From a virus (Duplodnaviria > Heunggongvirae > Uroviricota > Caudoviricetes): a stretch of 36,896 nucleotides of DNA. Both the position numbers and the translations under genes were made by a program. The stretch's first letter is position 1. The number at the start of each line of letters is the position of its first letter. Positions 836 through 24,750 of this stretch are shown piece after piece. The stretch lies in IMG/VR virus record IMGVR_UViG_643348551_000010, one strand, 5' to 3'. The notes beneath the pieces are model-generated. The model saw only the letters and a program-made list of their open reading frames with translations. It did no database searches and was not told the DNA's origin.

Positions 836-944
836 CTCACCTCCTTTGCATCAATTCGCCACTATCTTAAAAAACATCGTGGGTTAAGTGTGGTTATTAG
901 GGCATAATCGATCTGTATTACCGATCGATTTGATTGATTCGATC
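836..944 (-). promoter_or_regulatory. mom regulatory region: promoter interval plus upstream triad of Dam GATC sites (OxyR/Dam-sensitive region known from Mu)
   Basis: GATC at 910-913, 923-926 and 941-944 read directly, clustered within 35 bp just upstream of com/mom and overlapping the gin 3' end. Exact promoter and C-binding positions not resolved. Confidence 0.6.
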
Positions 945-1511
945 GTCGTTTTCTATATGCGTTCGTTTCGCAGGGTGTTTTTTATACAGAGTTGACAGGG
1001 CCACATCGTAGATCAATGCGACCTGCTTGCGGGGGATTCCTTGTGCTAATAAACGCCCGGCCTGCTCCCACTCTGCTTTGGTTAGTTTAGGTGGTCGCCC
1101 ACCAATACGGCCTTTATTTCTGGCGGCAGCAAGTCCAGCCATCGTTCGCTCGATAATTAGTTCTCGTTCCATTTCAGCCAGAGCCCCCATAACGTGGAAG
1201 AAAAAACGCCCCATTGGAGAAGATGTGTCTATGTTGTCGGTCAGACTGCGAAAATTAATCCCTCGCTCCCGTAGTTCCCCGACGAGAGAAATCAGATGTT
1301 TCATACTTCGCCCGAGGCGATCCAGTTTCCAGACAACCAGCGTGTCACCTTTTTGAAGGCGCTTTAAAGCGCGTTTTAATCCCGGTCGGTCTGTCTTTGT
1401 CCCGCTTAATTTATCTTCAAATATTTGTTCACATCCTGCACAAACAAGAGCGTTTCGTTGCAGGTCTGTATTCTGGTCATTTGTTGATACCCTTATATAG
1501 CCAATCAGCAC
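918..1511 (-). CDS. gin: Gin serine DNA invertase
   Basis: 197 aa, N-terminus MLIGYIRVSTNDQ (resolvase/invertase catalytic serine motif), C-terminal HTH. Lies directly beside the invertible segment and a gix site. Confidence 0.95.
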   Translation of the reverse strand: MLIGYIRVSTNDQNTDLQRNALVCAGCEQIFEDKLSGTKTDRPGLKRALKRLQKGDTLVVWKLDRLGRSMKHLISLVGELRERGINFRSLTDNIDTSSPMGRFFFHVMGALAEMERELIIERTMAGLAAARNKGRIGGRPPKLTKAEWEQAGRLLAQGIPRKQVALIYDVALSTLYKKHPAKRTHIENDDRINQIDR

Positions 1512-1565
1512 TCTGGATCTCCCGTTTAAAAGCGCAAATCATGCCATGCAGGCCGGAAACAGCCA

Positions 1566-1591
1566 TTATCCAAAACCTCGGTTTACAGGAA
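1566..1591. repeat. gix recombination site (gin-proximal)
   Basis: ttatccaaaacctcggtttacaggaa; the exact reverse complement occurs at 4613-4638. Confidence 0.85.
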
Positions 1592-2536
1592 ACGGTAAAT
1601 CAGGCTTCTGGCGCATTACAGAAAAACCAGAACGGCGCAGATATTCCGGGAAAAGATACCTTCACCAAAAATATTGGGGCCTGTCGCGCATATAGCGCAT
1701 GGCTGAATATTGGTGGCGATAGTCAGACCTGGACAACCGCACAATTCATTTCGTGGCTGGAGAGTCAGGGGGCATTTAACCATCCTTACTGGATGTGCAA
1801 AGGCTCATGGGCTTATGCAAACAATAAGGTCATTACAGATACAGGTTGCGGAAATATTTGTCTTGCAGGTGCTGTGGTGGAAGTTATTGGCACTCGCGGC
1901 GCAATGACCATACGCGTTACTACGCCGAGTACATCCAGCGGTGGCGGAATTACTAACGCTCAATTCACCTATATTAATCATGGTAATGCTTATGCTCCTG
2001 GCTGGCGACGAGACTACAACACGAAAAACCAGCAGCCTGCATTTGCTTTAGGGCAAACAGGAAGCAGGGTTGCAAATGATAAAGCTGTTGGCTGGAACTG
2101 GAATAGCGGCATTTATGATGCAGATATCAGTGGCGCATCGACATTAATCCTCCACTTTAATATGAATGCGGGGAGTTGCCCTGCTGTACAGTTCCGCGTG
2201 AATTACAGGAACGGCGGTATTTTTTATCGTTCAGCGCGTGATGGTTATGGATTTGAGGCTGACTGGTCAGAGTTTTACACCACGACCCGCAAACCCTCTG
2301 CGGGAGATGTTGGTGCATACACGCAGGCAGAATGTAACTCAAGGTTTATTACAGGTATTCGCCTTGGCGGTCTGTCATCTGTTCAGACATGGAATGGTCC
2401 CGGCTGGTCTGACAGGTCAGGTTATGTCGTTACGGGTTCAGTTAACGGAAACCGTGATGAATTAATTGATACAACTCAGGCAAGGCCAATTCAGTATTGC
2501 ATTAATGGAAGGTGGTATAACGCGGGGAGTATTTAA
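1592..2536 (+). CDS. S' variable segment of the alternative tail fibre; promoterless, expressed only after G inversion
   Basis: Open frame continuous through the gix site; shares the junction peptide IQNLGLQETVNQASGALQKNQNGADIP with S. The track ORF 1397-2536 extends spuriously upstream of the gix site. Confidence 0.7.
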   Translation, partial: TVNQASGALQKNQNGADIPGKDTFTKNIGACRAYSAWLNIGGDSQTWTTAQFISWLESQGAFNHPYWMCKGSWAYANNKVITDTGCGNICLAGAVVEVIGTRGAMTIRVTTPSTSSGGGITNAQFTYINHGNAYAPGWRRDYNTKNQQPAFALGQTGSRVANDKAVGWNWNSGIYDADISGASTLILHFNMNAGSCPAVQFRVNYRNGGIFYRSARDGYGFEADWSEFYTTTRKPSAGDVGAYTQAECNSRFITGIRLGGLSSVQTWNGPGWSDRSGYVVTGSVNGNRDELIDTTQARPIQYCINGRWYNAGSI

Positions 2537-2538
2537 TT

Positions 2539-3072
2539 ATGATGCACTTAAAAAACATTACTGCTGGCAACCCTAAAACAAAAGAGCAATACCAGCTAAC
2601 GAAACAATTTAACATCAAATGGCTTTATACAGAGGATGGGAAAAACTGGTATGAGGAACAAAAGAACTTTCAGCCTGATACGTTGAAAATGGTCTATGAC
2701 CACAACGACGTTATTATTTGTATTGAAAAGGATGTTTCAGCAATTAATCCAGAAGGCGCAAGCGTCGTTGAGGTTCCTGATATTACAGCAAATCGCCGGG
2801 CTGATATTTCGGGTAAATGGATGTTCAAAGATGGCGTAGTGATAAAGCGAACTTATACCGAGGAGGAACAGAGGCAGCAGGCAGAGAATGAAAAGCAAAG
2901 CCTATTGCAACTTGTCAGGGATAAAACCCAGCTATGGGACTCACAGCTACGGCTGGGTATCATTTCCAACGAGAATAAACAAAAATTAACCGAGTGGATG
3001 CTCTATGCGCAGAAGGTCGAATCCACAGACACCTCCAGCCTGCCAGTAACGTTTCCAGAACAACCAGAATGA
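2539..3072 (+). CDS. Tail fibre assembly protein U' (alternative cassette)
   Basis: 177 aa, paralogous to U at 3101-3628 (shared N-terminus [14 protein letters not shown]), inside the G segment on the opposite strand. Confidence 0.8.
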   Translation: MMHLKNITAGNPKTKEQYQLTKQFNIKWLYTEDGKNWYEEQKNFQPDTLKMVYDHNDVIICIEKDVSAINPEGASVVEVPDITANRRADISGKWMFKDGVVIKRTYTEEEQRQQAENEKQSLLQLVRDKTQLWDSQLRLGIISNENKQKLTEWMLYAQKVESTDTSSLPVTFPEQPE

Positions 3073-3100
3073 AACAAGGCCCGCTATCGGGCCTTAATTT

Positions 3101-3628
3101 TTATTCAGGCTTTTGTGGCCATTCAGGATTTGCCGTATCCACACGGCTGACCAGAACGCTGTAGCGTTCCCATGCTTCCAGTCGTGTGCGTTCCTCGTCT
3201 GTTGCCATATTCAGCCTGACAGCGCGTTCCAGCGGCTGGATGACTGATTCAGCTTCGGAAATCAACGCGGCCTTTTGTGATTCGGCCTGTTGTTGCTGTT
3301 CGTCAGCCGTATAAATCCGCTTAATCACAGCACCATCCTTAAACATCCATTTACCTGAGTCATCAGCACGTCGGTTGGCGGTAATATCAGGAACCTCGAC
3401 AACGCTAAAACCTTCAGGGTTAAGCGTGGAGGCATCTTTGGTGATGGCGACAATAATATTATTTTCGTCGTATACAATCTTTATGGTGTCGTCCTGAAAG
3501 TTATTTACTTCCTCATACCAGTTTTTACCGTCTTCTGTATATAACCAGATAACATCAAAATTCTTTGTTAGCTGACATTGCTCTTTTGTTTTTGGATTTC
3601 CTGACTTAATATTTTTTAAATGCTGCAT
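3101..3628 (-). CDS. U: Tail fibre assembly protein U
   Basis: 175 aa, directly downstream of S, paralogous to U'. Confidence 0.85.
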
Positions 3629-18587: not shown

Positions 18588-18773
18588 CGTGATTTGTGAG
18601 TAGCCAGTGTGCGGGGAACGGGAGAAAAGGCGGGGTTATCCAGTTTTAGTAATTCTGCAGGAGAAAGATAAAGGGGAAGGGAAATGCATGACGCTACCCC
18701 CTTCAAAACCCCTTCAAAAACGCCACAGAACCTTCAAAAATTCTTTATCGCGTGATTTTATCTCTGTATCTGG
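18588..18773 (-). promoter_or_regulatory. G-I intergenic region at the genome centre: expected site of the late promoter for I and candidate strong gyrase site
   Basis: 186-nt non-coding gap about 17.8-17.95 kb from the left end; three phased copies of ccttcaaaa at 18700-18708, 18711-18719 and 18731-18739. Confidence 0.5.
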
Positions 18774-19244: not shown

Positions 19245-20560
19245 TTATTCACCTCCACATGCCCTTCCAGTACGTCAATCATCCCGTCAGCAATCGCGGC
19301 TTCAAGCGACTGTGCAGATACGCGGCTGATACTGACCAGCACATCAGCCCGGTCATTCTGCCTGCCGACTGTCTGTGATGTTCTGACCACAATTTGGGCC
19401 GTGCCGTCACGGGTTGCCACAACGTACAGCAGCTGGTGATTTTTTCTGTCCCACAATACCGCCTGTGGTTCTGCCATCAGAGACGGCAGACGCTGTAAAT
19501 CCTCTGCTTTCAGGGCAGCATCAGCAGCGGTAGCCAGACTTTCTCCATTCATCACCAGTAAACGGGCTGGCATATTCCCGGTGCGCTGATGTACGGCTTC
19601 AGCTACCGATTCCGTCATAAAACCCAGTGCCCGGATCTCACGCCCGGCGTGACGTGATTTCGCCAGACGATTAAGCCACAGGGAAAAAGCAAGCTGGCGC
19701 TCCCGGCTGTTATTCAGCGTCTGTACAACCTGCTCACGCAGCTGCGCGTCACGAACTTCCACCAGTTTTCGAATCAGCGCCTGATCAGTACCGAATGCCG
19801 CCGAACCGGGGTTATATGACCAGCCAACGTCCGGCGTCATTTTTACCCGACCGTTGTCAAACGTGGTTGACGATGTGCGGAAAATCTCTCCTGTGCTTTC
19901 ATCCGTGCCGGCCTCCACTTCGCGGGTATCCATGAATGAAGCACCATAGCTGACCTGTAATCCCAGTTCTTTCATTCGGGCCGCAGATATCGCACGAACG
20001 CGGCAGCGACAGCTCCAGCCATTGGGCGGGTAATGTGTCTGCCAGAAAATATCGTCATACCGGAAAATCATATTATGCAGCCGGGCATGTTCCGGGCGCG
20101 TTCTGCTGTCCATAACGGCGACATACTGCCAGTACGGATACAGGTCTGCGGTATTCATCATCTGTGCATAACGTCCCGCCCCGTACGCTGTACGGGTATT
20201 GACGTTATAAATGGTTGCCAGACGACGCGGACTGCCCAGTTCGATTTCCTTCGCGTTTCCCTCTGCATCCACGATGATTTGTTTTCCCCACCATCCGAGC
20301 TTTTGCAACCGGGGAGCCAGTGTGCGGGTAAATTCCTCACGGGTGATACCCTCACTGACAGCCCGCTCCACTTCCTCACGGATTGTGGTCAGGACATCCA
20401 TCCGGGCAGCTTTGGCAACGGTAAAGGCACGGGCGTGCGCGTCTGCCAGTTGTTCGTACCAGTTCCAGGTGATGTTGTAGCCTTTGGCGCGGAAATACGC
20501 GACAGCCTCCTTTGGCGGGAGGCGTGCGGCATACGCCAGATCAATGGTCTGCTGCGGCAT
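19241..20560 (-). CDS. F: Head morphogenesis / minor capsid protein F
   Basis: Large ORF downstream of portal; start set at ATG 20558-20560 (G-rich SD-like sequence upstream) rather than the SD-less GTG at 20596. Confidence 0.75.
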   Translation of the reverse strand: MPQQTIDLAYAARLPPKEAVAYFRAKGYNITWNWYEQLADAHARAFTVAKAARMDVLTTIREEVERAVSEGITREEFTRTLAPRLQKLGWWGKQIIVDAEGNAKEIELGSPRRLATIYNVNTRTAYGAGRYAQMMNTADLYPYWQYVAVMDSRTRPEHARLHNMIFRYDDIFWQTHYPPNGWSCRCRVRAISAARMKELGLQVSYGASFMDTREVEAGTDESTGEIFRTSSTTFDNGRVKMTPDVGWSYNPGSAAFGTDQALIRKLVEVRDAQLREQVVQTLNNSRERQLAFSLWLNRLAKSRHAGREIRALGFMTESVAEAVHQRTGNMPARLLVMNGESLATAADAALKAEDLQRLPSLMAEPQAVLWDRKNHQLLYVVATRDGTAQIVVRTSQTVGRQNDRADVLVSISRVSAQSLEAAIADGMIDVLEGHVEVNK

Positions 20561-22079
20561 CCAGACGCCCCCATATATCGGCAACAAAAATGGCACGGGT
20601 CAGCATGTCGATAAGTTCTGCATCATCCATCTGCGGATATAATGAAGCGGCTTTGTTCATGGCGGCTTCCGGGCCATCTTTCAGCACAGAAAGAATGACG
20701 GGTTTCAGCAGGGGATCAACCGAACGCTGCCAGTCTTCCGGTGAAACGCCCATCCGGTCGATATCATCCTTCTGCGGGATATCATCAGCGGATAATGCGG
20801 CCTCTTTCTGCGAACCGTTATCCGGGACAACCGGTTGTACAGTAAACACGGCTTCATCACCGACCGGCTGTGGAATATGAAGTTTTTCCTGTATCCAGGA
20901 GACCGGAATACGCATTCCTGCCGCCAGTTTCGGAATGGCGTCAGACAGTGCCGTAATATCACCCGCTTCACTGGTATCAAATACAATGCCCGGCAGGCGG
21001 TTAATATCAATGGTGCTGTTACTGTTCAGTGCCAGCAGGGGATAGATCAAGTCACGGTTAATACTGCGGGCAAGCTGGCCCACATCCGCGTTACGGATTT
21101 CCCGGCGAACCTCGTCATGCACTTCACCCAGCGACCGCGCACCTTTATCTCCGGCCTCTGTGGTCAGGGTGCCGCCCAGAATGGCTTTTGAAATCGCTTT
21201 TTCTGCCCAGCCAATCATCGCCATAAAGGGGTCTGACTGACCATCTGCGGCGCTCTGAAAATCCAGCGTCATCCCCATCGGAATAATGCCACCGGCACGT
21301 CGCCCGATATCCATCACGGCCTGCATCAGCGTGGCTTTCTCGCGGTTCGTGGAGCCGGTCGGATATTTACCGACGCGCATAGGGAGTCCGTAAATTTCCA
21401 GGAACTCCGCAAAATCACGCACGGAATAGTTTTTAAAAATAAAAGGCCAGATAAGCGTGCGCACAAGGCCATTGGTACCAACGTACCCGGTGCGGGATTT
21501 GGCCCGATGCATAAACCAGCCGAACGGTTGCAGCTCCAGCCCGTGATAAGACGTATCACGCAGACGTAATTCGTTCAGATTGTCGGGGTTCGCGCAGAAC
21601 AGCGCCGGATCGCGATGATGCAGCGCCACCGGCACGCGCATTTTCCCAAGCCACCCCCATTCAATCTCCTGCATGGAATAACCCTTGAGAATGGCATCAC
21701 CGGCATCAAACAGGGCATCTTCAAACCACGCCGCATCATGCAGATATTCATTCAGCATGTCGGCGTCTTTTTTCTCCTGTGCACTGGCATCACGTGCCGG
21801 AGCGATGCGCCATTCCAGCGCCTGAATGGCAAGGCGGCGTTTGCTCAGTTCGGAAAAAAGGTGGGTGTCCTTTTCTTCCATATCAAAGGCCAGGTCAGCC
21901 TGTGCTGTCAGATCACCGCGTTCGGCATCACGCAGCATCTGCGCGGCCCGGTTCGGCGTCACGCCACTGGAGGGATGCTCCTGTGTGCGCTTCATGACCA
22001 TTGCCAGCTCATCGCTGCGGGTCTGCATTTCATCGTCAAAATCAAACGGCTGCCCGGAAATATCCAGAATACGGCCCAT
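20541..22079 (-). CDS. H: Portal protein
   Basis: 512 aa, start ATG 22077-22079 overlapping the terminase stop (TAATG coupling). Confidence 0.85.
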   Translation of the reverse strand: MGRILDISGQPFDFDDEMQTRSDELAMVMKRTQEHPSSGVTPNRAAQMLRDAERGDLTAQADLAFDMEEKDTHLFSELSKRRLAIQALEWRIAPARDASAQEKKDADMLNEYLHDAAWFEDALFDAGDAILKGYSMQEIEWGWLGKMRVPVALHHRDPALFCANPDNLNELRLRDTSYHGLELQPFGWFMHRAKSRTGYVGTNGLVRTLIWPFIFKNYSVRDFAEFLEIYGLPMRVGKYPTGSTNREKATLMQAVMDIGRRAGGIIPMGMTLDFQSAADGQSDPFMAMIGWAEKAISKAILGGTLTTEAGDKGARSLGEVHDEVRREIRNADVGQLARSINRDLIYPLLALNSNSTIDINRLPGIVFDTSEAGDITALSDAIPKLAAGMRIPVSWIQEKLHIPQPVGDEAVFTVQPVVPDNGSQKEAALSADDIPQKDDIDRMGVSPEDWQRSVDPLLKPVILSVLKDGPEAAMNKAASLYPQMDDAELIDMLTRAIFVADIWGRLDAAADH

Positions 22080-23734
22080 TACCAGCCCCCTCGTTCAAAC
22101 TGGTGATAATCATCAAAATCATCGTTATCAACATCATCACCACGGTGGCGTGGTGGCAGCGCCTGTATGCTGTCCTCGTCGATAACAAAACCATTCATAT
22201 AAGACGCCCTGACAGCCATACAGAGCGCCACGGCAAAGTCGCCATGTCGTCGGCCTTTACCGCCTTCATCTTTTGTGCGCCCCTTATCAATCTGCGGAAT
22301 ACCTTTGTCCACCTTGATGTGGAGCAGGTCATCAAGTGTGGTCTGGTGCCGGGCAATCGTGATGTTCTGCGCTTCAAACTCGCCTTTCAGTTTTGGCATC
22401 CACTCCTGATACCAGGATGCGGTCAGATTCACACAGTCGATCATCTCCGGGCCATAAATCAGACGGGCGGCTTCTGCCAGATAACCGCCGTTACCGGTGG
22501 CATCAAATGCAGCGCCGGTAAAACGGGGCAAACGGGACAGAATGAATAAAAGGATTTGTCGCTGCTGGTCATAGGTCACATTACGCAGCTCCACGCGGAA
22601 ACATTCGCGTTTGCGTAAGTCTGGAGTGATGGCAAGCGGCACAAACACCGTCAGGTCGCCACGGCGTGCAAAGTCTTCGCCCAGTACGTGTTTATTGAGC
22701 GGTGACAGCGCATCGAGCAACGGGAGCAGCTCCTGTTCACACCAGTCCTGAACGATACCGTGGCGCATCTGCGGTGTCAGCGATTCAAAATCGTCCGGGG
22801 CTTCAAAACGCAGAACCGGGATATCCCGCGCGGGTGTCATGGCAGCTTCAATCAGGACACGGGACAGGTAAGCGCCACCGGATTTTTTGGGAATACAGCC
22901 GTATTCCTCGTCGGCGCTCTCTTTGTTCGGCGCGTTCCGGTACAGGCCATCACGCCAGGCTTTCTCCGCTTCCGGTGACCACGGCTGATTCGTAACATAA
23001 CAGATACGCCGGTACAGCCCGTCAGCGATGGCATCGTCCAGCGTGATACGGTGAACGCTGTAATCCTTGCGCCCCTCGCGTGCATCCTGAATGTACTGGT
23101 TAAACAGGTTATCGACGCCGTTATGTGTCGATATGATCCGCACGCGGGCACCCCACATGGTGAGCGCAAAGGCCGCTTTCAGGAGTTCGTCCAGGGCTTC
23201 ATGAAATGCCGCTTCATCAATCACCACATCCCCCTGTAAACCACGCAGGTTAGACGGGCGGCTTGAAAGCGCCTGCACCTTAAATCCACTATTCGGAAAG
23301 CGGATCATGTAGGTGAGGATTTCTTCTTTTTTGTCGCTGTCCCAGAAGGTCTGCTCCCAGACGTCAGCCTTTGCCAGCTGGTTAAAGGCGCGGGCAAACA
23401 GGGCACAGGCGGCGATGTATTCCAGCGCCATTTCCTGACGGGAACCCACATAAAAGACGTTGCGACCACCACGGCGACGCGGCTTTGCGGCCGTCATGAC
23501 ATTGCGGCCCGCTTCGGCCCATGTCAGACCGGTACGACGGGATTTTTCAGCAATGCAAATCTGGCTTTCATCCTCAAACCAGCGGCGCTGATAGCCCAGA
23601 AAAACCGGTTCATTGCGGGGCTGTGCTTCCCCGATATCGGTCACGATATTCACGCCAAGCAGTTCGGCTTCCTTACGCAGGTCGATTTTGCGGGGCGCAT
23701 GAAGGGCTTTAAGTTTGCTTTCTTTGGTGCTCAC
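22079..23734 (-). CDS. Terminase large subunit; annotated start is a GTG without obvious SD
   Basis: 551-aa ORF immediately upstream of portal; size and position typical. Confidence 0.85.
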   Translation of the reverse strand: MSTKESKLKALHAPRKIDLRKEAELLGVNIVTDIGEAQPRNEPVFLGYQRRWFEDESQICIAEKSRRTGLTWAEAGRNVMTAAKPRRRGGRNVFYVGSRQEMALEYIAACALFARAFNQLAKADVWEQTFWDSDKKEEILTYMIRFPNSGFKVQALSSRPSNLRGLQGDVVIDEAAFHEALDELLKAAFALTMWGARVRIISTHNGVDNLFNQYIQDAREGRKDYSVHRITLDDAIADGLYRRICYVTNQPWSPEAEKAWRDGLYRNAPNKESADEEYGCIPKKSGGAYLSRVLIEAAMTPARDIPVLRFEAPDDFESLTPQMRHGIVQDWCEQELLPLLDALSPLNKHVLGEDFARRGDLTVFVPLAITPDLRKRECFRVELRNVTYDQQRQILLFILSRLPRFTGAAFDATGNGGYLAEAARLIYGPEMIDCVNLTASWYQEWMPKLKGEFEAQNITIARHQTTLDDLLHIKVDKGIPQIDKGRTKDEGGKGRRHGDFAVALCMAVRASYMNGFVIDEDSIQALPPRHRGDDVDNDDFDDYHQFERGGW

Positions 23735-23788
23735 AGGTGAAAAATCCGGTATAAATTTTCAGGCTTTAATCAGTAAAAAGAGGTTGCT

Positions 23789-23974
23789 ATGAAAGAAAAG
23801 CTGACCATTGACCAAAAAATTGAGATTGCAAAAATAGCAAGTGACTTTGTTATCGCTGGCATGAATACGAATAAACAGCCAGCGTGTCTTGCCGGTTCTG
23901 ATCAAAATGTGAAGTCAGAACGGGAGTTGTTAAAACATATTTATCAGTTGCTGGAGGCAATGATTACTGATTAA
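23789..23974 (+). CDS. Hypothetical 61-aa protein encoded antisense to the late operon
   Basis: ATG at 23789 with SD aagagg 5 nt upstream; occupies a 229-nt gap lacking any minus-strand ORF; ends convergently, 11-nt overlap with the 64-aa gene. Confidence 0.4.
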   Translation: MKEKLTIDQKIEIAKIASDFVIAGMNTNKQPACLAGSDQNVKSERELLKHIYQLLEAMITD

Positions 23975-24158
23975 TTTGTGACTCTCTGATGATCTGGCCC
24001 GCGATACGCGGGCCAACCACAATCTGCATTAACAGATACAGTGATTCGGCTTTTGTGACGATATGAATATTGCCCTCCTCAGCCAGCGCCGCTTCGACGA
24101 TGGGTTTGAGTTTCAGGGCAATTTCCGCAGACGTTTTTTCTTTGGTTTCAACAGCCAT
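23964..24158 (-). CDS. Small protein with hydrophobic C-terminal segment (possible membrane tether)
   Basis: 64 aa from ATG 24156-24158 with strong SD (aaggaga), coupled to the upstream gene stop at 24172-24174. Confidence 0.6.
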   Translation of the reverse strand: MAVETKEKTSAEIALKLKPIVEAALAEEGNIHIVTKAESLYLLMQIVVGPRIAGQIIRESQINQ

Positions 24159-24171
24159 TACATTTTCTCCT

Positions 24172-24750
24172 TTACGCTTTCCCCAGCAGCACATCACGGA
24201 TACGCTGCTCCAGTTCTTCGCTGATGCCATCCTGCCCGCGCAGTTCTTCGCTGACAGCGTTTGCCGCTTCTTCTGCGAATGCCTGGCGGATCTCTTTCTC
24301 GCGCCGGTGGCTGGACATTGCTGTGGATTCCAGACGCTGTGCCGCCAGCATGGCGTTTTTCAGCAGTTCAATATCCACGTCATCTTCCGGTTTTTCGATT
24401 TGCCGCATCATGGCTTTAAAAAGCTGGCTGCGGGCCATTTCCAGAATCAGCTTTGTGGTTTCCCCCATTGGCTTGTCGCCAAGTTCTGCGGTCAGTGCTG
24501 ACGTCATTTCACGCATCTGTCGCAGGTTATGGCCTACCTGTTCGACGTTTGTCGCGTAACGGTTCAGGCCGGAACGGGAGAGTTTCATGTCATCAGGCAG
24601 TCCGGCATCTTCAATCAGGGCGTTAATTTCTTCCAGAATGCGGGCCTGTGGGATTGCCTTGTCACGCAGCATTTCATGCAGTGTTTTGCGCACGTTTTCC
24701 GGCAGCAAATCCACTTTTGAAGCCCGTCCCCGTGTTTTCCTGTCCATCAT
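24172..24750 (-). CDS. DNA-packaging protein, candidate terminase small subunit (tentative)
   Basis: 192 aa, charged helical protein positioned upstream of the terminase large subunit. Confidence 0.55.
   Translation of the reverse strand: MMDRKTRGRASKVDLLPENVRKTLHEMLRDKAIPQARILEEINALIEDAGLPDDMKLSRSGLNRYATNVEQVGHNLRQMREMTSALTAELGDKPMGETTKLILEMARSQLFKAMMRQIEKPEDDVDIELLKNAMLAAQRLESTAMSSHRREKEIRQAFAEEAANAVSEELRGQDGISEELEQRIRDVLLGKA

Follow-up and report, generated by a model that had tools for sequence, protein, structure and literature searches.

A conserved antisense gene between terS and terL of enterobacterial Mu-like prophages, a candidate Tab-like defence gene with a putative convergent antidote

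In a Mu-like prophage of 36,896 nucleotides (IMG/VR record IMGVR_UViG_643348551_000010, this whole stretch being called the window hereafter), a 61-codon open reading frame on the plus strand, antisense to the late operon and located between the genes of the two terminase subunits, terS and terL, is almost certainly a real protein-coding gene. It converges on a 64-codon late-strand gene, p64, and this partnership, which was missed in the preliminary description of this DNA, is the main clue to the function of the antisense gene. By analogy with the Tab/anti-Tab pair, we consider it a serious possibility, somewhat short of probable, that the antisense gene encodes a prophage-expressed defence protein that is neutralised by p64 in the phage's own lytic cycle. 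In a 97.6%-identical E. coli prophage, both genes are annotated as hypothetical by the NCBI pipeline (PGAP), and therefore the existence of the antisense gene is not new; what seems to be new is to read it, together with p64, as the enterobacterial counterpart, unrelated in sequence, of Tab/anti-Tab in Mu-like prophages.

The insert between terS and terL and its antisense gene

The window is a Muvirus prophage that keeps the synteny of Mu, with early and late genes on the minus strand. Upstream of terS (24172-24750, minus strand; Mu gp27 homologue, DUF3486/Phage_Mu_Gp27) lie gp26-like, gp25-like, lysozyme and Mor/C-family genes, also on the minus strand, and on the other side of the junction we find terL (22079-23734, minus strand; Mu gp28 homologue) and the portal gene (20541-22079, minus strand). 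When positions 23400-24400 were compared with phage genomes by megablast, 55% of the query was covered, in two pieces, and these flanks were 94-95% identical to Mu, D108, SfMu and their relatives. Given that Mu, D108 and SfMu align only at the flanks, and that just 7 nt separate the terS stop from the terL start in Mu, the window bears a 437-bp insert at 23735-24171, which is missing from these three phages, with 7 nt in its place, and has a GC content of 36-45% vs. about 55-60% in the flanks.

This insert contains two convergent small genes whose 3' ends overlap by 11 nt. The first one is p64 (23964-24158, minus strand; 64 aa), the candidate anti-Tab-like antidote, which begins 13 nt beyond the terS stop and comes with an AGGAG of its own; the second one is the antisense gene (23789-23974, plus strand; ATG, 61 codons and stop; 61 aa, MKEKLTIDQKIEIAKIA...), the candidate Tab-like defence protein, which is divergent from terL across 54 nt. 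The order in the window is, accordingly, terS, 13 nt, p64, antisense gene, 54 nt, terL. The p64 protein is RefSeq WP_000279391.1 and matches phrog_21398 over its full length, and the antisense protein is the RefSeq hypothetical protein WP_000660214.1, with a full-length match to phrog_25148 of PHROGs. The preliminary description had seen at this place a single 229-nt gap in a late operon otherwise free of gaps: the absence of a minus-strand ORF stands, the longest one in 23735-23963 having 48 aa, but the gap is no isolated hole, being half of a two-gene insert. A second gap of ~186 nt in the late region, at 18588-18773 between the G-like and I-like genes, also has no long minus-strand ORF; in Mu this place is that of the PI late promoter, and in Pseudomonas Mu-like phages that of anti-CRISPR genes.

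The coding nature of the antisense ORF was assessed from the several allele types that E. coli Mu-like prophages carry at the same place, namely type A, which is the window allele, type B, with an 89%-identical protein, type C, a 71-aa protein that was reached via a 70%-identical p64, and a fourth allele, type D (locus L032). Of the 19 nucleotide differences between types A and B, 12 affect third codon positions (binomial p = 0.007); the dN/dS is 0.16, and the same comparison in two shifted frames gives ratios of 1.9 and 2.9 with 6-7 stops; one antisense frame that shares the third positions scores as well, yet it holds 3 stops. Between types A and C, residues 1-17 are identical and all six nucleotide changes there are synonymous, and within type C the dN/dS is 0.12. 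In addition, the reading frame stays open in alleles of 36% identity within identical backbones, as in the window compared with locus L015, with 100% identity in TerS and TerL against 36% in the antisense protein and 70% in p64. Further such pairs are known, and, to judge by them, the cassette is swapped among otherwise identical phages. The synonymous-site pattern in the codon-level comparison that the preliminary description had proposed therefore fits a coding sequence (dN/dS 0.12-0.16).

It is scarcely credible, in view of these data, that there is no gene here and that the ORF arose by chance in a non-coding spacer, or in a spacer with a structured regulatory RNA. The ORF is short and has no assigned function, and the region folds somewhat better than its shuffles, as such a spacer could; however, this reading is contradicted by the dN/dS of 0.12-0.16, by the open frame of the 36%-identical alleles in identical backbones, and by motifs that are conserved in relatives down to about 30% identity, besides the lack of an Rfam match at 23500-24400 on both strands up to E = 1. 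A structured RNA as the main content of the gap, which had been proposed earlier, is not supported either, given that Rfam yields no match and that the substitutions follow the pattern of a protein; some RNA or DNA hairpins do occur within the gene and near it. Because of this protein-level selection, such RNA elements cannot replace the protein.

The antisense family and its convergent partner p64

By means of an exhaustive HMMER search and a profile search, we assembled an antisense family of 37 clusters with proteins of 61-89 aa, whose hosts are E. coli, Salmonella, Enterobacter, Citrobacter, Erwinia, Mixta, Apirhabdus, Rahnella, Serratia and Dickeya. The N-terminal motif (K/E)LTIDQK(I/L)xIA is invariant in this family, the middle region is hypervariable with indels, and the C-terminal helix ends in an acidic tail, the conserved motifs being common to relatives down to about 30% identity. 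The 48 loci that were retrieved represent about 19 distinct alleles; the antisense gene is opposite to a Mu-like late operon in all of them, with both TerS types (Mu gp27 and DUF1804), and its start lies 54-86 nt from the terL start in all 48 loci but one. The small gene transcribed against the late operon, as it had been suggested before, is thus borne out by purifying selection, by the frame kept open in divergent alleles, and by a family of 37 clusters whose orientation within Mu-like late operons is always antisense. A viral contig (L038:1663-2427) carries a 254-aa DNA methyltransferase-like gene with a DPPY motif that separates the antisense gene from terL, and it is the sole such locus. 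A tblastn search of three family members against 50,697 phage genomes gave no real match, and none of the isolated phage genomes in this collection carries the antisense family.

The late-strand partner is just as constant. A protein with the p64 domain, recognised by the motif (A)L(Y/W/F)L(L/A)MQ..GP..A, faces the antisense gene in 48/48 loci, the antisense gene is never found without p64, and the 3' ends of the two genes usually overlap by 11-29 nt. The partner usually has 62-69 aa, and in two loci the motif forms the C-terminus of a longer protein: in Enterobacter ludwigii (L029:3197-3943) the p64 domain ends a 248-aa protein with a match to Pfam Phage_gp49_66, and in L045:2718-3335 it ends a late-strand protein of 205 aa, both converging on the antisense gene. 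Many loci have an extra late-strand gene of 58/59 aa (p58) between terS and p64, and the window has p64 only.

In Yersinia phage Tongde, one member of the pair has been lost. Tongde (L001 1836-1862) carries a type-D cassette that, compared with L032:3020-3270, is short of about 200 nt. This clean deletion removes the Shine-Dalgarno sequence (SD) and start codon of the antisense gene together with most of its length, leaving p58 and p64 intact. The states that would be expected from a defence-plus-antidote pair are those found by sequence comparison, that is, neither gene, the antidote only, and never the defence gene alone. A partial Mantel test of antisense gene vs. p64 divergence was significant, and we suggest keeping in mind that this co-divergence is uninformative on interaction because the two genes are adjacent and physically linked. 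A search of the p64 profile against the PDB pointed to designed armadillo repeats (residues 27-51, ..vIkAeaLylLmQlvdgP.), and this match was discarded since it was a sum of sub-threshold repeats, each with an i-Evalue > 60; the armadillo likeness of p64 is probably a compositional or helical resemblance only.

The model that we favour would work as follows. The antisense gene would be transcribed in the lysogen from its own promoter, independently of the C-activated late operon, and the small helical protein made from it would stop related superinfecting phages at a late step, such as the assembly of virions or packaging. Once the resident prophage turns lytic, the late transcript would supply p64 along with the terminase, and p64 would bind and neutralise the antisense protein, so that the phage would not poison itself.

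An ordinary moron, acting on the host or on host defences as an anti-defence or lysogenic-conversion factor and having no functional link to p64, is a different reading of the same gene, and we find it unlikely. Such a role would suit an antisense protein that is small, soluble, mildly acidic and helical with a hypervariable middle region, as well as a low-GC segment with a gene that is present or absent among close relatives and whose orientation and SD allow an expression independent of the late operon. Against it, none of the 48 loci lacks a p64-type domain beside the antisense gene, and they span two TerS types and several genera and include the larger fusions; the genes are convergent with usually overlapping 3' ends; and p64 outlasts the deletion of the antisense gene, while the reverse was never seen.

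The homology searches and structure predictions that the preliminary description had recommended assigned no function from Pfam, NCBIfam, PADLOC, PDB, fold or Rfam comparisons. For the antisense protein and p64, searches of Pfam, NCBIfam and PHROGs gave only PHROGs of unknown function, PADLOC had no match, the antisense family had none among PDB sequences, and fold searches returned generic helical-hairpin matches only. AlphaFold2 with the family alignment predicts for the antisense protein, with good confidence, a helical hairpin (pLDDT 84.7, pTM 0.70) with helices at 7-25, 31-34 and 44-60.

These searches also bear on the reading of the locus as a toxin-antitoxin-like addiction or abortive-infection pair, or as a small DNA-binding regulator of the ribbon-helix-helix type acting on the terL region, which is very unlikely. 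The KLTID stretch and its helix are superficially like the strand-helix start of ParD/CopG-type proteins, the conserved N-terminus and variable C-terminus resemble the architecture of an antitoxin, and the antisense gene adjoins terL in nearly all loci. Nevertheless, no match to ribbon-helix-helix or toxin-antitoxin families was obtained in Pfam, NCBIfam or PDB sequences even at E = 1-10, the genes are convergent and not co-transcribed as in type II toxin-antitoxin modules, and neither protein resembles a known toxin. The ribbon-helix-helix idea drawn from the KLTID motif was thus discarded, no tool giving a ribbon-helix-helix, ParD or CopG-type match in its support.

Expression signals and RNA elements around the antisense gene

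The 61-aa ORF was said to have a strong SD and an upstream TATAAAT, and all of these are present in the sequence. The SD, AAAGAGG (23777-23783, plus strand), stands 5 nt before the antisense ATG, and AAAGAGG, AGAGAGG or GGAGACC is found at the same place in all family loci. The TATAAAT (23750-23756, plus strand) is a -10-like element of a candidate antisense promoter, replaced by GATAAG, GATAAT or GGATAC in other clades. In a sigma-70 scan, this element and its surroundings scored below threshold in the window, and therefore the antisense promoter is unconfirmed; the same scan upstream of the antisense gene gave no canonical promoter in the window, L021, L024 or L044. Expression of the antisense gene in the lysogen is plausible from its orientation, its strong SD, the -10-like element and the analogy with Tab (PMC10884400). 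A promoter-like site inside the ORF (23808-23835; TTGACC, 16 nt, AAAAAT, with TG before the second hexamer) falls within the TIDQK codons, and it is probably incidental because TTGACC is not kept at synonymous sites in other alleles. A C-dependent late promoter for the antisense gene was also considered and rejected, since a by-eye comparison with the Plys region of the window gave no common motif.

On the late strand, the start of terL at a GTG without SD, as it had been described, was confirmed: nothing like GGAG/GAGG precedes it within 15 nt (late strand ...CCGGATTTTTCACCT GTG). The same holds for all E. coli cassette types, in which the nearest translated late-strand gene is 229 nt off, whereas the terL of Mu has an ATG preceded by GAGGG. 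The terL of Tongde starts at an ATG, also without SD. Coupling through a mini-ORF upstream of terL was seen by eye in one locus only and, not being conserved, was discarded.

Several RNA or DNA structure elements surround the gene, and both strands fold better than shuffles, with z = -2.7 and -3.1. In the window, a perfect 11-nt inverted repeat brackets the ORF, with its left arm TTAATCAGTAA at 23766-23776, inside the antisense 5' UTR, and its right arm TTACTGATTAA at 23964-23974, which is exactly the 11-nt overlap with the stop codons of both convergent genes. This length was reached in 0/500 shuffles. If the two arms paired on the late mRNA, the antisense stretch would be looped out, and about 31 nt would then separate the p64 stop from the terL GTG. 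The repeat is specific to E. coli alleles, namely types A and B and, in a weaker form, type C, and a long-range pairing of the 5' UTR with the 3' end was therefore rejected as a family-wide feature, being confined to the E. coli types. There is also a GC-rich hairpin of 9 bp, TGGCCCGCG-ATA-CGCGGGCCA (23995-24015), located 21 nt after the antisense stop in the p64 codons G-P-R-I-A-G-Q. It has no U tract after it on either strand, it is retained in most clades by the same third-position choices or as GGCCCC/GGGGCC, and it is missing in E. coli type C. This hairpin may work as a 3'-end stabiliser of the antisense mRNA.

The non-E. coli loci have, in turn, a conserved hairpin between terL and the antisense ATG (L021:2936-3006, L024:2936-3006, L029:2936-3006, L044:2424-2494 and other non-E. 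coli loci; equivalent to 23735-23788 in the window), whose 3' arm is the antisense SD. Its arms co-vary between clades as AGCCTCTTT/AAAGAGGCT, AAAGCCTCTCTGTG/CACAGAGAGGCTTT and GGTCTCC/GGAGACC, the loop of about 30 nt holds the GATAAG/GATAAT/GGATAC motif, and beyond the hairpin, in the late-strand direction, come a five-U run and then the terL SD. For most loci outside E. coli, per-sequence duplex folding found only 0-3 of 300 shuffles to be as stable; when these intergenic hairpins were aligned with MAFFT, RNAalifold gave no structure, the arms being out of register. In the window and the other E. coli types, the 5' arm of this hairpin has been lost together with the terL SD. An SD sequestered in a hairpin would repress the translation of transcripts that start upstream, and thus it fits poorly with a simple constitutive expression; the hairpin points to an extra translational or late-strand control.

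All these elements raise the question of whether the locus could work mainly through RNA, in the manner of a noncontiguous operon or excludon, where antisense transcription collides or pairs with the late mRNA upstream of terL, tuning terL and the downstream genes or silencing them in the lysogen, with the protein being secondary. The late transcript would indeed have to run through 229 nt of untranslated antisense sequence before a GTG-started terL without SD, the antisense gene converges on and overlaps p64, and the folding of both strands (z = -2.7 and -3.1), the 11-nt inverted repeat bracketing the ORF of the window, and the co-varying hairpin of the non-E. coli loci, with its five U and terL SD on the late strand, would all be at home in such a mechanism, the noncontiguous-operon concept being documented in S. 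aureus (PMC11034616). We nonetheless regard it as decidedly unlikely, given that purifying selection and a peptide motif kept invariant despite synonymous change indicate that the protein itself is selected, that terL is expressed without the antisense gene in Mu, D108, SfMu and Tongde, and that the hairpin and the inverted repeat are each clade-specific. Moreover, in the TERi system of Listeria, the antisense effect was experimentally tested and does not explain the phenotype (bioRxiv 10.1101/2025.02.27.640495).

Significance and comparison with known systems

If the defence-plus-antidote model is true, assembly-blocking prophage defences with built-in antidotes recur in transposable phages beyond Pseudomonas, in those of E. 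coli, Salmonella, Enterobacter, Erwinia, Dickeya and others, and two orphan families, phrog_25148 and phrog_21398, would acquire a role. Because Mu, D108 and SfMu are naturally without the cassette, the model can also be put to a direct test, with two proteins of about 60 aa, in the phage-host system that has been studied best. Even if the model is wrong, the locus is still a well-founded case of a phage late operon with a conserved protein gene nested in it in antisense. As a broader and distinctly tentative proposal, the terS-terL junction of Mu-like phages could be an old defence-plus-antidote slot shared across bacterial orders, occupied in Enterobacterales by the widespread LTIDQK proteins, unrelated in sequence to Tab, with p64 as their antidote. 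The LTIDQK proteins would block the assembly or packaging of competing Mu-like phages; the hypervariable middle would set the target specificity, the invariant N-terminal helix would be the handle for the antidote, and the SD hairpin would be a translational switch between lysogeny and the lytic cycle.

Among the known kinds of extra phage genes, the insert is like a moron (concept of Juhala et al. 2000, as used in PMC10884400) in being an additional low-GC segment, present or absent among relatives, with an orientation and signals that allow independent expression. In contrast, morons in the classical sense are autonomous transcription units of one gene each, equipped with a promoter and a terminator, and here we have a convergent pair with one member in the late operon; neither a canonical promoter nor an intrinsic terminator was found in the insert. 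The locus is also like the noncontiguous operons or excludons of the S. aureus atlas (PMC11034616), with an opposite gene in the middle of an operon whose mRNA is fully antisense to it. However, that class is defined by a demonstrated mutual regulation via overlapping transcripts, whereas at the present locus such regulation would be putative and selection clearly acts on the protein.

A likeness of layout is also found in TERi of the Listeria phage phi10403S, composed of TerI, anti-TerI1 and anti-TerI2 (Azulay et al., bioRxiv 10.1101/2025.02.27.640495). TerI is a 65-aa defence protein that is encoded on the opposite strand in the lytic module, transcribed in lysogeny, and binds TerS, while the counter-defence consists of two self-immunity proteins of the lytic strand, one of whose genes overlaps the defence gene (bioRxiv 10.1101/2025.02.27.640495). 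The TERi locus is a hot spot in which a conserved promoter is followed by one or another of several small genes without mutual homology (bioRxiv 10.1101/2025.02.27.640495); similarly, in our family the upstream leader and the N-terminus of the antisense gene are conserved and the rest of the gene is swapped. As to late-strand partners, many of our loci have two, p58 and p64, and the window has one, p64. The difference is that TERi belongs to the early lytic module of a Gram-positive siphovirus and our pair to the late module, between terS and terL.

The system most similar in architecture is Tab/anti-Tab of the Pseudomonas aeruginosa Mu-like phage JBD26, in which Tab prevents the tails of invading phages from being assembled (Patel et al. 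2024, Nat Commun 15:1644, PMC10884400) and anti-Tab, encoded on the late strand directly after terS, binds Tab in the prophage's own lytic cycle (PMC10884400). The tab/atab pair is dispensable, atab alone protects the phage, the sole deletion of atab was not achieved (PMC10884400), and Tab homologues are known only from close JBD26 relatives (PMC10884400). The JBD26 record reads terS 878-1378(+), atab 1378-1629(+), tab 1583-1834(-) and terL 1865-3520(+); gene order, strands, the overlap of the convergent genes and the short divergent spacer before terL all agree with those of the window, again in a transposable (Mu-like) phage, with a small late-strand partner directly after terS and a defence gene opposite to the late operon. 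The 3' overlap of the convergent genes is 47 nt in JBD26 and 11-29 nt in the enterobacterial loci. Here too, the comparative evidence from Mu, D108, SfMu and Tongde indicates a pair that is missing in close relatives, dispensable, and viable with the antidote only.

What the two systems do not share is sequence: hhalign of the antisense family with Tab (YP_010299225) gave E = 0.28 over 9 columns, and that of the p64 family with anti-Tab gave E = 0.69, with no detectable similarity. Unlike JBD26, the hosts here are Enterobacterales, and many loci have p58 as a second late-strand gene. A tape-measure target as in JBD26 is not implied either, because the enterobacterial Mu-type phages are myoviruses and JBD26 is a siphovirus. 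Tab, Tai and TERi all put defence and counter-defence on opposite strands (bioRxiv 10.1101/2025.02.27.640495), and the signature seen by sequence comparison in our loci, with identical TerS and TerL vs. a divergent cassette, a low-GC insert, and an opposite-strand layout as in TERi/Tai, is that of conflict genes.
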